In this document: in pieces, positions 1,610 to 38,451 of the stretch
Layout of the letters: each line of letters begins with the position of its first letter
How positions within the stretch are numbered: position 1 is the first letter of the stretch
NCBI GenBank assembly: GCA_944322725.1
Contig: CALUPU010000007.1
Location: forward strand, 8,601-72,600
Length of the DNA: 64,000 bases
DNA from: Candidatus Gastranaerophilales bacterium
GTDB lineage: Bacteria; Cyanobacteriota; Vampirovibrionia; Gastranaerophilales; Gastranaerophilaceae
Direction: 5' to 3'
The notes under the pieces: generated by a model
Seen by the model: the letters and a program-made list of their open reading frames with translations, nothing else
Told to the model about the DNA's origin: nothing
Database searches by the model: none
Position numbers and translations under genes: made by a program

Positions 1610-3185
1610 ATGTTGAGCTCAGGCAGTAACAAAGAAAAAATCCTGCGACCTGGATGGATATCAAAGGGCTGCAGTAAAAAGCGAGGCAAAAAGACTGCTT
1701 ATTACAGCAGGTCCTGGCTCTGGTAAAACTACTGTTCTCACAAGGAGAATAGCATATCTTGTTTCCGAAAAAGATGTTCCTGCGGATAATATCCTTGCCA
1801 TTACATTTACAAGAAGGGCTGCGCAGGAGATGCGCGAACGTTTGCAAAAACTCTTACCTGATTTGTACGAAAGTATAAATATACATACCTTTCACTCAAT
1901 GTGCTTTTCTATCTTGAAAGAAAATGCAGCCAAAGCAGGCTTAAATCCTGACTTTAAAGTAATAAGCGAACAGGAAAGAGAGTTGTATAAAGAGGACTTT
2001 AAACCTGATGAAGCACTTGGTTTTGATGATTTAATATCGTACACATTAAAACTTTTTGAGCAGAATCCTGACATACAAACCTTTTATAGGCAAAAATTCA
2101 AATATGTTTCTGTGGATGAATATCAGGATGTGGACGAAAACCAGTATAAGCTTATAAGGCTCCTTGTGCCTAATGAAGGAAATATCTGTATAATAGGCGA
2201 CCCGAATCAGGCTATCTACGGCTTTAGAGGCGGTGATTCAAGATTTTTTAATAATTTTTCACAGGATTATCCTGATTCTCAAATTGTCTGCCTTCGTAAC
2301 AACTACAGCTCAACAGGTGAGATTGTTAATGCTTCAAACCAGATGATTGAATCTTACAATATTGTCTCACAATATGACAGTCCGTATGAAAAAATCACTA
2401 TACATACGGCGCCAACAGACAAAGCAGAGGCTGAATTTGTCGTAAGTACAATCGAGAATATGATAGGCGGAAACAGCTTTTTCTCAATTGACTCAGACAG
2501 GGCAGACGGCTCTGAAAAAGATTTGTCTTTTGGTGATTTTGCCATTCTTTACAGAACTTCTTCCCAGCTGGAGCCTCTTATTGATGCGCTGGAACGCTCA
2601 GGCATGCCTTTTGTTAAGCTGTCAAATGATTTGCTCTGCGATAAAAAACCGGTTAGAGAATTATTGTCCTTGCTGCGTAAAGACAGTCCGGTTGCTGAAC
2701 AATTAGAAGCTTTGTCAAAAGTTTTTGAAGAAAAAATTGATGATAATATTTTAAAGTTTTTAAAAGAAACAGCTATAGAATGTGCGGACAGAGATGATTT
2801 TGTACATCAGATTTCTCTGCTTACGGAGGCTGATACGCTGGATGAACGCGCTGACAGGATTGCTCTTATGACTCTGCACTCCTCTAAGGGACTTGAATAC
2901 AAATGTGTTTTTGTAACCGGTCTTGAAGATGGAATTATTCCGCTGTACAGAGCCAAAACACCGGAAGAAAAAGAAGAAGAGCGCAGACTTCTTTATGTCG
3001 GTATGACAAGAGCGCAAAGAAGACTCTTCTTATCCCACTGTTTAAAAAGAAAATGGCTCGGTACTTACAAAAACCTTGAGATTTCGCCATTTCTTGCAAA
3101 AATAAAAGAAGATTTACTTAAGTTGAGTAAGTTTGATAAAGAATACAAAGAAAAAGATAATACGGAACAGTTAAAGCTGTTTTGA
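1610..3185 (+). CDS. UvrD/PcrA-like superfamily-1 DNA helicase, 5' end frameshifted or mis-assembled
   Basis: The frame of ORF 1830..3185 stays open upstream to 1617 and there encodes LDGYQRAAV..ITAGPGSGKTT (Walker A). Later motifs are VDEYQDVDENQ, GDPNQAIYGFRGG, LMTLHSSKGLEYKCVF and YVGMTRAQRRL. There is no ATG/GTG/TTG in that frame between the stop at 1614-1616 and the Walker A. The only plausible ATG (1610) is in another frame. Confidence 0.75.
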
Positions 3186-3186
3186 T

Positions 3187-3220
3187 GATAAAAAAGAGGC
3201 TTATTAAAAGCCTCTTTTTT
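3187..3220. terminator. bidirectional rho-independent terminator
   Basis: AGAGGCTT-attaa-AAGCCTCT hairpin flanked by an A-run and a T-run. It lies between the helicase stop and the 3' end of the convergent tRNA-Val. Confidence 0.75.
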
Positions 3221-3223
3221 AAA

Positions 3224-3299
3224 TGGTGGGCGATACTGGACTCGAACCAGCGACCCCCACAATGTCAATGTGATGCGCTACCAACTGCGCCAACCGCCC
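3224..3299 (-). tRNA. tRNA-Val (anticodon GAC), CCA encoded
   Basis: The reverse complement folds as a cloverleaf: acceptor GGGCGGT/ATCGCCC, D-arm GCGC-AGTTGGTA-GCGC, anticodon arm TCACA-TTGACAT-TGTGG, T-arm GCTGG-TTCGAGT-CCAGT, then A-CCA. Confidence 0.93.
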
Positions 3300-3313
3300 A
3301 TTTATTTAATTAG

Positions 3314-3400
3314 TCAAAGCCATAGCTTTGAGATGTGCTACCACCCTCTCCTCGAACGTGACATTTAGTCACCTTCTCGTCGGCAGAGTGCCAACCGCTC
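3314..3400 (-). repeat. truncated tRNA-Val-like element (5' part plus hairpin module plus stem-loop)
   Basis: Minus strand reads GAGCGGTTGGC (10/11 identical to tRNA-Val positions 1-11), a 47-nt insert (3343-3389), GGTAGCACATC (D-arm 3' side), then the TCAAAGC-TATG-GCTTTGA hairpin. No T-arm or 3' acceptor strand. Confidence 0.7.
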
Positions 3401-3447
3401 ATTTTATTTATTTTTAATATTATCATAAAATTTTTATTTTCAAAATA

Positions 3448-3630
3448 TTAAAATAATTTTCTCATTTTAATGAGACATTTTTCTATTTTTTCTGCTATGT
3501 ATGAGTATGAGCCTGTTATATTATTTTCTTCATTGTATTTAATTGCACTAAACAAAAGTTTAGAGAGTGATTCAATGTCGTAGAAAAGGGTTTCCAGTTC
3601 AAATATGTCTATTGTAGAATTCTGTTTCAT
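3448..3630 (-). CDS. hypothetical small protein (60 aa)
   Basis: ORF in an AT-rich islet between tRNA genes, divergent from the HTH gene. No recognisable motif. Confidence 0.3.
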   Translation of the reverse strand: MKQNSTIDIFELETLFYDIESLSKLLFSAIKYNEENNITGSYSYIAEKIEKCLIKMRKLF

Positions 3631-3717
3631 TTTTACCTCATTGCATTTTAAGATGTATTATTACATAATATAATGTAATTTTCAACGTAATAATAAAATT
3701 TCAGATAATATTTTATT

Positions 3718-3945
3718 ATGAACGAAAAATCAATTATTAATGAAATTAAAATTCTGGCAATGGACAGGGATATGACTCTGACAAGGGTCGCAGAATTACT
3801 TTCACAAAAATTAAATAAAAAGTATTCCATGAATAATCTTTCTCAAAAACTGAGGAAAGAAACAATCCCATATAAAGAAATCAAGCTTATTGCTGAGATT
3901 CTGGATTATGATATCAGATTTATTGATAAAAAAAGAATGCACTAA
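3718..3945 (+). CDS. small helix-turn-helix DNA-binding protein (XRE-like)
   Basis: 75 aa. MTLTRVAELLSQKL..NLSQKLRKETIPYKEIKLIAEILDYDIRF resembles short XRE/Cro-type HTH proteins. Followed by a terminator. Confidence 0.5.
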   Translation: MNEKSIINEIKILAMDRDMTLTRVAELLSQKLNKKYSMNNLSQKLRKETIPYKEIKLIAEILDYDIRFIDKKRMH

Positions 3946-3971
3946 AAAAGACCTCATTAAGAGGTCTTTTT
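3944..3971. terminator. rho-independent terminator (usable from both strands)
   Basis: AGACCTC-attaa-GAGGTCT hairpin with a flanking A-run and T-run. It lies between the HTH gene stop and the 3' end of tRNA-Cys. Confidence 0.7.
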
Positions 3972-3978
3972 AGTAAAT

Positions 3979-4049
3979 AGGCGGCACCCAGATTCGAACT
4001 GGGGATAAAGGCTTTGCAGGCCTCTGCCTTACCACTTGGCCATGCCGCC
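3979..4049 (-). tRNA. tRNA-Cys (anticodon GCA), no encoded CCA
   Basis: The reverse complement is GGCGGCATGGCCAAGTGGTAAGGCAGAGGCCTGCAAAGCCTTTATCCCCAGTTCGAATCTGGGTGCCGCCT. Anticodon loop CTGCAAA, U73 discriminator, T-arm CCCAG-TTCGAAT-CTGGG. Confidence 0.9.
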
Positions 4050-4223
4050 AAATTATTTAAGAATGGATGAAAATCACACGACATTCAAGAAATCTTTGAT
4101 TTCGTAGAATGACGGGTGCTGGCGATTTGCTTTAGCAAATCGAACACGTAAACCGTAATACTAGCAAACTTGTTTGCGTAGTAATACGAGGTGAGAGTCT
4201 ATCTTTGGCTTTTAATGTACGAA

Positions 4224-4298
4224 TGGAGCGGAAGACGGGACTCGAACCCGCAGCAGCCTGCTTGGAAGGCAGGTACTCTACCATTGAGTTACTTCCGC
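4224..4298 (-). tRNA. tRNA-Gly (anticodon TCC), CCA encoded
   Basis: The reverse complement is GCGGAAGTAACTCAATGGTAGAGTACCTGCCTTCCAAGCAGGCTGCTGCGGGTTCGAGTCCCGTCTTCCGCTCCA. Anticodon loop CTTCCAA, U73, standard cloverleaf. Confidence 0.93.
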
Positions 4299-4480
4299 GT
4301 AGAGTTTTTTGTTTTTGCGTCCCTGCCTTCTCGGCAGGTAGTAAATCTAACTTCGAGTGCTCTGCACTCTTGGCATTGAGTTACTTCCGCGTAGAGTTTT
4401 TTGTTTTTGCGTCCCTGCCTTCTCGGCAGGTAGTAAATCTAACTTCGAGTGCTCTGCACTCTTGGCATTGAGTTACTTTT
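4282..4480 (-). repeat. 92-bp perfect tandem repeat (about 2.2 units) that includes the first 17 nt of tRNA-Gly
   Basis: Unit 4299-4390 is identical to 4391-4476, after which the second unit diverges. Each unit ends (minus-strand: begins) with GCGGAAGTAACTCAATG, which is tRNA-Gly positions 1-17. Units also contain GAGTGC-AGA-GCACTC and CCTGCC-GAGAA-GGCAGG hairpins. Confidence 0.9.
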
Positions 4481-4496
4481 ACAAAAATTATAAGTA

Positions 4497-4570
4497 TCGG
4501 GATGACACGATTCGAACGTGCGACCCCTTCGTCCCAAGCGAAGTGCGCTACCAAGCTGCGCCACATCCCG
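4497..4570 (-). tRNA. tRNA-Pro (anticodon TGG), no encoded CCA
   Basis: The reverse complement is CGGGATGTGGCGCAGCTTGGTAGCGCACTTCGCTTGGGACGAAGGGGTCGCACGTTCGAATCGTGTCATCCCGA. Anticodon loop CTTGGGA, standard cloverleaf. Confidence 0.93.
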
Positions 4571-4669
4571 ACCCTTTTGTGGAATCCGACGCGCACTTCG
4601 TGCTACCTCTCGTTCGAAATGACATTTAGTCATTTCTCACTCGGCAGAGTCAAGCTGCGCCACATCCCG
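4571..4669 (-). repeat. truncated tRNA-Pro-like element, proximal copy
   Basis: Minus strand reads CGGGATGTGGCGCAGCTTG (19/19 match to tRNA-Pro positions 1-19), a 44-nt hairpin module (4607-4650), then GTAGCAC followed by divergent sequence. No T-arm or 3' acceptor strand. Confidence 0.75.
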
Positions 4670-4711
4670 ATGTATATAGGAACGCAGCTTGGTAAATTTC
4701 TATACGGCACA

Positions 4712-4794
4712 CAGAAGCATTGCTTCTGACTCAGCCTGCCTCCACTCCGGCTTGACATTTAGTCAACCCTGCGCGGAGTCCTTGCCACATCCCG
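4712..4794 (-). repeat. truncated tRNA-Pro-like element, distal copy
   Basis: Minus strand reads CGGGATGTGGC (11/11 match to tRNA-Pro positions 1-11), a 41-nt hairpin module (4739-4779), then the CAGAAGC-AAT-GCTTCTG hairpin. It shares the 5' flank TATACAT with the proximal copy. Confidence 0.7.
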
Positions 4795-4852
4795 ATGTAT
4801 AACTATCAAATTACTATTATCTTTTCAAAGTACTATTAATTTCGTAACTATG

Positions 4853-4881
4853 AGTTTATCAACAACAATTGTCACAGTCAA
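4853..4881 (-). promoter_or_regulatory. candidate sigma-70 promoter for the tRNA cluster
   Basis: Minus strand has TTGACT, 17 nt of spacer, then TAAACT, upstream of the distal Pro-like element. Sequence match only. Confidence 0.35.
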
Positions 4882-4903
4882 GAGATATAACCTCTTATAT
4901 TGA

Positions 4904-5302
4904 CTACATTTTTCTTGTAACTTTTATCAAATGCCAGCCATGACGGGTTTTTACCGGGTCTGAAACTTCACCTATAGGCGTCTCAAATGCTGCATTTTCA
5001 AACTCCGGCACCATCTGACCTCTGACAAAATATCCTAAGTCACCGCCTTTTTCTTTTGACGGGCATTTTGAATATTTCAGAGCCAGTTCTTCAAAGCTTT
5101 CACCTTCTGTGATTCTTGATTTTATAGCCCAAGCCTGTTGTTCGTCATCCACAAGGATATGCTTTGCTCTTACAGTTTTGAATTGTGAGCCGTCTTCTGC
5201 CATTACGGCATTTGACTGCATATTTATTACAGGTACGGTACACAAACCGCAAAGTATAACCGCACAAATTATTTTAATAAAAGTTTTTGCATATATTTTC
5301 AT
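4904..5302 (-). CDS. parvulin-type peptidyl-prolyl cis-trans isomerase (PpiC family), secreted
   Basis: N-terminal signal-like hydrophobic segment followed by a rotamase domain: AKHILVD..FEELALKYSKCPSKEKGGDLGYF..MVPEFENAAF..GWHLIKV. Confidence 0.85.
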   Translation of the reverse strand: MKIYAKTFIKIICAVILCGLCTVPVINMQSNAVMAEDGSQFKTVRAKHILVDDEQQAWAIKSRITEGESFEELALKYSKCPSKEKGGDLGYFVRGQMVPEFENAAFETPIGEVSDPVKTRHGWHLIKVTRKM

Positions 5303-37371: not shown

Positions 37372-38451
37372 TTAAACTTCTACATATTCTCTTAAGCGTT
37401 TGCTTCTGTTGGGGTGTCTGAGTTTTCTTAAAGCTTTTGCTTCAATCTGTCTGATACGTTCTCTTGTAACACCGAACAACTGACCCACTTCTTCGAGTGT
37501 TCTCTGTCTGCCGTCATCCATACCGAAGCGGAGTCTTAAAACATCTCTTTCACGTGGAGACAGACCGCTCAATACTTCAGCAAGGTCTTCTCTTAAGAGT
37601 TCGTGAGCAACTGTTTTGACAGGAGCGTCAGCGTCTTTGTCTTCGATGAAATCACCGAGTCTTGAATCTTCTTCTTTACCGATAGGAGTTTCAAGAGAGA
37701 GAGGTTCTTGTGCAACTTTGATGATTTCTCTTAATTTTGAGATGGAAATATTCATTTCCTGTGCGAGTTCATCTTCGGTCGGTTTTCTTGATAACTCTTG
37801 AGCAAGTTTTCTTGTTACTTTTTTCAGCTTGTTGATAGTTTCAACCATGTGAACAGGGATACGGATAGTACGCGCCTGGTCAGCGATTGCTCTTGTGATA
37901 GCCTGACGAATCCACCATGTTGCATAAGTTGAGAATTTGTAGCCTCTTTCGTGGTCAAATTTTTCTGCCGCACGGATTAAGCCGAGGTTGCCTTCTTGAA
38001 TAAGGTCTAAGAAAAGCATTCCTCTTCCTACATATTTTTTTGCAATAGAAACAACAAGTCTCAAGTTTGCCTGAACAAGTTTTCTTTTAGCAATAGCACC
38101 TACGTTGCCGCCTTGAATAATTTTTCTGGCTAAATCGATTTCTTCATCAGCTGTTAAAAGTTTGATACGGCCGATTTCTCTTAAATACATTCTGACAGGG
38201 TCATCAAGAGAAACACCTCTGGGGACTGCCAATTGCGGTTCATCCTCAGAGTCCATATCTTCTGAAGGCTGCATATATATTTCGTCTGCTGCTGTTGAGC
38301 CGGATTTTCCGATGATTACATCAATACTGTCTGTTGTTATTGTTTCGGGTTCGCTAAATAAATCATCACCTGTTGTATCATCATCATTTTGAAGTTCGTC
38401 TTCATCAATAATACTAACGAGTGATTTGTCTGACATTCTTTTTCTGCTCAT
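37372..38451 (-). CDS. rpoD: RNA polymerase primary sigma factor (group 1, sigma-70)
   Basis: Region 2 has [36 protein letters not shown]. Region 3 has [11 protein letters not shown]. Region 4.2 has [30 protein letters not shown]. Acidic N-terminus. Confidence 0.93.

Follow-up and report, generated by a model that had tools for sequence, protein, structure and literature searches.

Among the repeats associated with transfer RNA (tRNA) genes, the closest to those described here are of the rtT type found at tyrT in Escherichia coli, where tandem units located downstream of the tRNA each carry its 3'-terminal segment and are co-transcribed with it. We analyzed a stretch of 64,000 nucleotides (nt) from a Candidatus Gastranaerophilales bacterium (contig CALUPU010000007.1, positions 8,601 to 72,600, called the window below), in which one or two units lie upstream of each of the genes for tRNA-Val, tRNA-Gly and tRNA-Pro and start with an exact or near-exact copy of the first 11-19 nt of the tRNA concerned. 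This arrangement had been noticed in a preliminary description based on the sequence alone, and the sequence and a repeat finder agree on it. The resemblance to rtT lies in the layout: tandem non-coding units lie beside a tRNA, carry a copy of its terminal segment and are, as predicted here, co-transcribed with it. The differences are that most units are located before the tRNA and copy its 5' end, that the hairpin module they contain is shared across tRNA types, that they occur throughout an order, and that they include foldback antisense segments. The contrast drawn in the preliminary description with repeats copying the 3' end of a tRNA holds for the units in the window, which fall outside the rtT definition, but not for their relatives, where mirror units copying the tRNA 3' end also occur; these 3'-type units match the rtT layout in three loci (L055, L065 and L075), with the opposite module polarity.

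The units also differ from several other known systems. Like mascRNA, YrlA and tRNA-like leaders, they would place tRNA-derived sequence in a longer transcript, and many have an acceptor-like closing stem; unlike these generic mimics, they are identical to the 5' part of the neighboring tRNA, have no T-arm and are recognized neither by the RF00005 model nor by ARAGORN, which found only the four genuine tRNAs in positions 3100-5000. No Rfam model matched a unit in the gathering-threshold search of the whole window or in the search of 3100-5000 at E <= 10. With the T-arm missing, the four-arm cloverleaf of a tRNA gene or pseudogene is lacking, and the intact cognate gene located directly 3' of each unit distinguishes the arrangement from the split tRNAs of the Nanoarchaeum type. 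It also differs from clustered regularly interspaced short palindromic repeats (CRISPR), since whole units are repeated, including the spacer-like head, and no cas-like open reading frames (ORFs) recur in the 121 loci examined.

The five units and their counterparts in close relatives

Each unit consists of a copy of the tRNA 5' end, the head, followed by an insert, which in the Val and Pro units is a hairpin of about 45 nt, the module. The units are listed with the four tRNA genes of the region, all called by both ARAGORN and Rfam; R1 is the covariance model used here, and z compares each fold with those of shuffled sequences (-4.0 to -4.8 for all five units).

3300-3400, minus strand: Val unit, with the head GAGCGGTTGGC (3390-3400; 10/11 versus the gene), a type-1 module (3345-3389), the D-arm remnant GGTAGCAC (3335-3342), the hairpin TCAAAGC-TATG-GCTTTGA (3314-3331) and a leader (3300-3313); z = -4.4, R1 70.4 bits
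4299-4390, minus strand: Gly-proximal unit, with its head at 4374-4390 (17/17); z = -4.0
4391-4482, minus strand: Gly-distal unit, with the degenerate head GTAAAAGTAACTCAATG (4466-4482), the final 13 nt of which are kept; z = -4.3
4571-4669, minus strand: Pro-proximal unit, with its head at 4651-4669 (19/19, or 20/20 counting the preceding T), a type-1 module (4606-4650), the D-arm remnant TAGCAC (4600-4605) and a 3' strand, GTCGGATTCC (4581-4590), pairing with the head; z = -4.8 as a single long hairpin, R1 64.4 bits
4671-4794, minus strand: Pro-distal unit, with the head CGGGATGTGGC (4784-4794; 11/11), a type-2 module, AAGGACTCC...GGAGG (4739-4783), with the apical sequence TGACTAAATGTCA (4753-4765), the hairpin CAGAAGC-AAT-GCTTCTG (4712-4728) and a 3' strand, GCTGCGTTCC (4679-4688), pairing with the head; z = -4.2, R1 30.6 bits
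3224-3299, minus strand: tRNA-Val (GAC), intact
3979-4049, minus strand: tRNA-Cys (GCA), without any 5' head copy
4224-4298, minus strand: tRNA-Gly (UCC), intact
4496-4571, minus strand: tRNA-Pro (UGG), intact

The exact core TGACTAAATGTCA is common to the hairpins of the Val unit and both Pro units. The two Gly units, which the repeat finder reported as a perfect 92-nt tandem repeat, do not contain the canonical module: both carry the insert hairpin GAGTGC-AGA-GCACTC and the foldback hairpin CCTGCC-GAGAA-GGCAGG. The insert hairpin is a distinct, covarying structure kept in the orthologous Gly units (one in L087, three in L125), where GAGTGC/GCACTC is changed to GAGAGC/GCTCTC in a compensatory manner; the Gly insert may be a diverged relative of the module. 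In the Pro units, CGAAGTGCGC (4591-4600, proximal unit) is the antisense of tRNA-Pro nt 22-31, and TACCAAGCTGCG (4683-4694, distal unit) is the exact antisense of its D-arm (nt 10-21).

Most of the details given in the preliminary description were reproduced from the sequence, namely the exact matches of the Gly-proximal, Pro-proximal and Pro-distal heads and the three stem-loops quoted for Val, Gly and Pro-distal, whereas the distal Gly head was found to keep 13 nt instead of 14. tRNA-Cys has no 5' copy, as had been stated, nor has it one in any of the loci compared (0/4). The insert described as common to several tRNA families is indeed shared by Val and Pro (with Pro-distal carrying the type-2 variant), but the one present in the Gly units is a different hairpin. 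The elements were said to lack both a T-arm and a 3' acceptor strand: the T-arm is absent, but both Pro units have a 3' strand (4581-4590 and 4679-4688), rich in G.U pairs, which is complementary to the head.

The rotamase protein flanking the cluster was found on contigs from many independent metagenomes. The Pro units are 100% identical on seven independent metagenome contigs from other samples, three of which (L003, L005 and L006) reach furthest, into the Gly units. L003 carries a single Gly unit where the window has two, which reflects either a collapsed assembly or a true variation in copy number. Short-read metagenome contigs of the same strain (L001-L008 versus window 4374-4910) tend to end inside the repeats, and a relative assembled from HiFi reads (OZ006972.1, L065) carries a three-unit array. 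The closest relatives among the matches listed are the Gastranaerophilales metagenome-assembled genomes (MAGs) L087, L079 and L125, which are 80-88% identical to the window in this region. The order of L125 is that of the window: the rotamase gene and the promoter come first, then two type-2 Pro units and a type-1 Pro unit ahead of tRNA-Pro, then three Gly units ahead of tRNA-Gly, and finally a structured spacer and tRNA-Cys. Its rotamase gene is 72.5% identical to that of the window at the DNA level, and the element region 75-79%. L087 (85-87% identity) carries Gly and Val units. Orthologues of the Val unit (L087), the Pro-proximal unit (L079 and L125) and the Pro-distal unit (L125) were identified, and the Gly unit copy number was found to be two in the window, one in L087, three in L125 and one in L003. 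At position 9, tRNA-Pro has G in the window and A in L125, and all the heads match their own tRNA; the degenerate heads are those of the outermost units. The fact that the heads track their own tRNA, along with the degeneracy of the outermost heads and the variable copy number, suggests that the units are homogenised by unequal exchange.

Distribution and structure of the unit family

The shared core was used as a pattern to scan a collection containing one genome per species, and the counts of module copies given below are those among the matches listed. At least 120 loci were obtained, versus about 10 expected by chance (a rough estimate based on the pattern and the collection size), nearly all of them in Candidatus Gastranaerophilales/Melainabacteria MAGs from human, rumen, mouse, horse and goat guts. 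The repeat or RNA family therefore spans an order of uncultivated gut bacteria; Rfam 15 contains no such family, and our literature searches yielded no description of this arrangement. Since viral contigs gave only a single match (L129), the family is not mainly phage-borne. Contigs bearing modules were also encountered in MAGs labelled Methanomethylophilaceae, Muribaculaceae or Clostridium (L015, L018, L027 and L081), which suggests mis-binning, since their tRNAs match Gastranaerophilales sequences.

A tRNA on the same strand lies 45-319 nt downstream of 72 of the 145 module copies. In 56 of these 72 cases, the core is preceded, mostly directly, by the exact first 8, 11-12, 17-19 or 26 nt of that tRNA, and the 16 remaining heads differ from it by one or two bases. 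The tRNAs with module-bearing 5' units are Met, Lys, four Leu, three Pro, Val, Ile and Thr. The 115 copies that could be classified comprise, apart from these 72 sense copies located 5' of a tRNA, 12 in a mirror arrangement at the 3' end, 27 intergenic copies and four in other positions adjacent to tRNAs. In a test performed on 97 tRNAs independently of the module, a cognate 11-nt head was present within 450 nt upstream of 49 out of 91 tRNAs (54%, a value inflated by the module-based selection of the loci, which does not affect the cognate specificity), versus 17 out of 1881 (0.9%) in the case of non-cognate heads: the recurrence of heads is far beyond chance. In this sample, units are always present at Gly-UCC, Pro-UGG, Pro-GGG, Leu-CAG and Leu-UAA and never at Cys, Tyr or Thr-UGU in the same loci.

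When aligned by tRNA type, the 5' units show a constant order: a copy of the leader, the head (tRNA nt 1 to 8-26), the module and a tail. The module takes the place of the D-loop, or that of the 5' strand of the D-stem in initiator Met, and is located at the 26/27 junction in Ile. The tails hold pieces of tRNA (GGTAGCGC; in Ile, the anticodon loop CCTGATAAGGGT followed by CCAGCCC) and usually a foldback hairpin formed by the D-arm sequence and its reverse complement. Judging from their sequences, the units are derivatives of complete or partial tRNA copies from which the T-arm has been lost. Segments of 9 nt or more that are exactly antisense to the cognate tRNA, centered on positions 10-30, are present in 16 out of 57 units versus 16 out of 570 non-cognate pairs, those in the window being located at 4683-4694 and 4591-4600. 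A strand complementary to the head is common, though not universal: cognate pairing is the better one in 30 of 45 units (-9.8 versus -8.5 kcal/mol, p = 0.003). This support being modest, the closing stem between head and tail was demoted from a defining to a common feature.

The 125 unique module copies belong to two types: type 1, ACUCUGCCGA-stem-UGAC UAAAU GUCA-stem-GAGAGG, and type 2, AAGG-ACUCC...GGAG, with the same apex (Pro-distal in the window). Among 62 type-1 copies, both sides vary in 7 of the 12 stem pairs, and two-sided changes occupy 134 cells versus 46 +/- 5 in shuffles, none of which reached this value (0/500); pairing amounts to 89.6% in the true register versus 33-53% in slid registers. 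The base, CUC-UGCC-GA...GA-GAG, is followed by a 12-bp stem, the apex of which is usually GAC-UAAAU-GUC. A search with the base pattern alone yielded 145 copies in 0.9 Mb versus none in reversed controls, and ten of these copies have other apical hairpins; the base is therefore the defining part of the module. It possibly forms a kink-turn (K-turn)-like loop with tandem G.A pairs, as it can be drawn with a C-stem (CUC/GAG), a bulge, G.A and A.G pairs and a regular stem, and in one subfamily a second tandem G.A is present (CGAG/CGAG). Unlike standard K-turns, this putative structure has a bulge of 4 nt (UGCC) instead of 3, and type-2 modules have the tandem G.A without any bulge; covariation is uninformative on the K-turn columns because they are invariant. 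In the 64-kb window, R1 detected only the three known copies, and a weak match at 38213-38256 was set aside as a chance match in coding sequence. The module variants present at orthologous sites are not the same.

On the module strand, the head of the 12 mirror copies corresponds to the tRNA 3' end and trailer in reverse complement, the match being exact over 10-18 nt in 10 cases; the module is located in the T-arm region, and the terminator is repeated in each unit. Regardless of the direction of transcription, the module always points into the gene from outside. The 27 copies without any tRNA within 400 nt are intergenic, often inside the loops of other hairpin repeats, and show no strand preference relative to the flanking genes (5 sense, 8 antisense, 8 divergent and 3 convergent). 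Sister repeats with and without the module were found in L113 and L125, GTTA or GTAA being replaced without any duplication, and nested modules were found in L016, L039, L061 and L114. Judged by this distribution, the module behaves as a dispersed insertion.

In these respects, the module resembles repetitive extragenic palindromic (REP) sequences, bacterial interspersed mosaic elements (BIMEs) and miniature inverted-repeat transposable elements (MITEs): it forms a short, imperfectly palindromic sequence, the stem of which covaries and the ends of which are conserved, it is extragenic, multicopy and clade-specific, sometimes nested or in tandem, it occurs in either orientation relative to genes, and it breaks short-read assemblies. 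Unlike REPs and MITEs, about three-quarters of the classifiable copies lie in copies of tRNA ends, with a strict polarity toward the gene. Nor does it have terminal inverted repeats, since its ends (ACTCTGCCGA versus CCTCTC(G/A), the 3' end being reverse-complemented) share only about 4 nt, or a fixed target-site duplication, the repeated head being 8, 11-12, 17-19 or 26 nt long plus a variable leader. No transposase-like ORF, whether of the RAYT (Y1 HUH transposase) type or other, recurred in the 121 loci, examined over up to 8 kb.

Of 45 unique units, 44 have a more stable fold on the tRNA-sense strand than on the complementary strand (mean difference 7.7 kcal/mol, p = 6e-9), and G.U pairs are more numerous on the sense strand. 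The units are likely to be co-transcribed with the tRNA, to judge from the promoter-like site located 5' of the first Pro unit and the lack of any terminator predicted within the Pro-Gly-Cys cluster of the window. With the strand-specific fold, these features make co-transcribed leader RNAs, an option named in the preliminary description, a plausible one.

Origin of the units and alternative explanations

The reading we favor, with roughly even chances of being correct, is that parts of tRNA gene ends have been duplicated in tandem and have degenerated, that these duplicates have been colonised by a clade-specific REP/MITE-like module, and that they are homogenised with the live gene and are probably transcribed as structured leaders. 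The module would be a small palindromic DNA element that enters sequences able to form a cloverleaf and lands in the loop of their first arm, on the strand read from the outer end of the gene, and would therefore always point into the gene. Insertions would survive only where part of a tRNA gene end has been duplicated in tandem and the copy is redundant. The arrays would grow and shrink by unequal crossing-over or gene conversion over the shared leader and head, and the same exchange would maintain heads identical to the live tRNA, with decay affecting the outermost units. As they lie within the tRNA transcription unit, the 5' units would be transcribed as compact structured leader RNAs, which would be removed during pre-tRNA processing. 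The presence of units at the same tRNAs despite a flanking rotamase gene only 72.5% identical speaks for the age of the arrangement. Among the explanations proposed in the preliminary description, that in which a small insertion element hit dead tRNA genes, later replaced by duplication, comes nearest to these data, which show degenerate partial tRNA copies interrupted by a module.

Several points weigh against this reading. The ends of the module are not inverted repeats, no target duplication of fixed length was found, and no transposase or other protein recurs near the modules in the 121 loci (up to 8 kb). Only two pairs with and without the module are available, and no empty orthologous tRNA site was seen; in addition, the loci were picked because they bear modules, so that the unit frequencies per tRNA are biased upward. 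The heads are exact despite their diverged flanks, the Pro-proximal unit in the window sharing only 20 nt with tRNA-Pro, and their retention at the same tRNA types across diverged genomes of about 2 Mb could equally mean that selection acts on an RNA function. Lastly, we infer the transcription and processing of the units.

It is possible, though rather unlikely, that the units are dedicated functional RNAs, the head and antisense tail of which address the cognate tRNA or pre-tRNA, while the module base serves as a K-turn-like protein handle; the ribonucleoprotein (RNP) would control the folding, 5' processing, modification or stability of the tRNA, or the units would be decoys titrating a tRNA-binding factor. 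The strand-specific stable folds (44/45 units), the covariation in the module and in the Gly hairpin, the invariance of the module base and the heads tracking their own tRNA are all consistent with such a role, as is the conservation of position and tRNA type across genomes about 72% identical. The cognate-specific antisense to tRNA nt 10-30 exceeds what internal pairing requires (window 4683-4694, for example), and every 3'-type unit is closed by a terminator hairpin, read on the module strand, and could therefore be a small independent gene, antisense to the 3' end of the tRNA. However, the module is found both along and against the direction of tRNA transcription and has no strand bias at the other intergenic sites; the copy number is unstable, modules are nested, pairs with and without a module exist and the units at the edges decay. 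The stem between head and tail is only modestly cognate-specific (30/45 units, -9.8 versus -8.5 kcal/mol), the canonical module is missing from the Gly units, the module has no known protein partner, and its bulge counts 4 nt versus 3 in the standard K-turn. A wider proposal, which we regard as doubtful, is that we are dealing with tRNA-addressed RNAs or RNPs exerting isoacceptor-specific control of tRNA maturation or protecting tRNAs from tRNA-targeting factors, or else with a single-strand insertion process recognizing cloverleaves and duplicating tRNA ends.

The head copies might also be attachment-site (att) duplications due to very small integrative elements which depend on an integrase, recombine inside the end of the tRNA gene and bring a replacement copy of it, or to decayed remnants of such elements; in our view, this explanation is improbable. 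As in att duplications, direct repeats of the leader and head flank each insert and the gene is kept intact; in L125, a 25-nt repeat of the tRNA 3' end brackets the spacer located 3' of tRNA-Gly, and a small recombinase having only a Phage_integrase domain is encoded near arrays in four loci. Unlike integrase-encoding elements, the inserts are only about 80-110 nt long, non-coding and partly tRNA-derived, the repeats mostly copy the 5' end and vary in length (8 to 26 nt), and the recombinase has an inconsistent position, has no homologue in the window and is found in no more of the 121 loci than synteny near tRNAs would give. That the module is a small hammerhead-like self-cleaving ribozyme processing the tRNA leader is very improbable. 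CUGCCGA-stem-GAG does resemble the core CUGANGA-stem II-GAAA, and many units are three-way junctions with the topology of type I hammerheads, but the module has C and G in place of the essential A6 and A14, its core is not immediately followed by stem III, the junction is missing in type-2 modules and intergenic copies, and no hammerhead or other Rfam ribozyme model gave a match even at E <= 10; this reading was rejected because of the core mismatches and the geometry. Short-read contigs often break within repeats, which could point to random duplication debris or to mis-assembly peculiar to this contig, two possibilities raised in the preliminary description. Both are scarcely credible: independent contigs are identical, the HiFi-assembled relative has a three-unit array, and the arrangement follows a strict cognate rule, being order-wide, tRNA-type-specific, positionally conserved and structurally constrained. 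The covariance model suggested in the same description was built (R1) and run on the window, and the pattern scan showed that copies recur in relatives, mostly 5' of the cognate tRNA.

The rule that a unit copies the end of the adjoining tRNA gene and evolves in step with that tRNA is unusual. As mere selfish DNA, the units would show that insertion occurs preferentially in the arms of the tRNA cloverleaf and would account for the fragmentation of these MAGs at tRNA loci; if they are functional, they would constitute a new means of addressing single tRNA species. In both cases, the covariance model and the head rule enable annotators to recognize the units instead of leaving gaps or calling spurious ORFs. 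Several ORFs listed for the window overlap units; the small ones were set aside, since tRNAs and repeats account for the region.

Other features of the region and neighboring repeats

The cluster includes the following further features.

4853-4881, minus strand: sigma-70-like promoter, TTGACT-17-TAAACT with TG, 5' of the Pro-Gly-Cys cluster (predicted by consensus scan only)
4050-4223, minus strand: conserved, structured spacer between tRNA-Gly and tRNA-Cys, starting with GACTCTCAC and forming a closed multi-arm fold (z = -4.5)
3945-3971, minus strand: terminator-like hairpin and T run 3' of tRNA-Cys (repeat finder and sequence; missing from the terminator scan list)
3189-3221, minus strand: terminator hairpin 3' of tRNA-Val (repeat finder)

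L125 has a similar promoter-like site in the position equivalent to 4853-4881. The spacer between tRNA-Gly and tRNA-Cys (174 nt) is 79-87% identical to those of L125 and L087. In L125, the orthologous spacer (1801-2055) ends with a 25-nt copy of the tRNA-Gly 3' end and trailer, which in the window is degenerate; the spacer may be another type of element duplicating tRNA ends, or a small RNA.

The tRNA-Cys terminator and the Val unit are separated by about 580 nt (3401-3978) containing two small ORFs, 3448-3630 (minus strand, 60 amino acids) and 3718-3945 (plus strand, 75 amino acids), neither of which has a Pfam match. Since this segment is absent from L087, where the gap between Cys and Val is 294 nt, it looks like a lineage-specific insertion.

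The protein of about 180 amino acids with only a Phage_integrase domain is encoded 128-2030 nt from the arrays: L116 716-1255 and L123 1566-2120 (tRNA-fMet), L065 3459-4019 (tRNA-Leu-CAA) and L028 3442-3978 (an Ile-like unit). In view of its inconsistent position across these four loci and the lack of a homologue in the window, this small tyrosine recombinase was set aside.

Some of the modules not associated with tRNAs (L038, L053, L105 at two sites, L096 and L060/L119/L124) are located in a conserved non-coding region, GGTGAG...GACACTAGATTAGAT, found 5' of unrelated genes (RecF-like and sigma-factor-like) and without any Rfam match; it may be a shared 5' untranslated region or promoter element of the clade. 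An Rfam gathering-threshold search of the 18 non-tRNA host loci returned only one ordinary tRNA, located elsewhere in L124. A second short repeat, with GTCATTCTGAG / TCAGAATGAC, is frequent in L011, L012, L024, L052, L113 and other loci and in some cases contains the module. The motif TTGAMAAYTWAATA is found about 4-12 nt 5' of position +1 in many tRNAs and unit heads, of various types, as in the leader at 3300-3317 in the window (TTGACTAATTAAATAAAT); this motif, which could be an unusual promoter or processing signal, is duplicated along with the heads.

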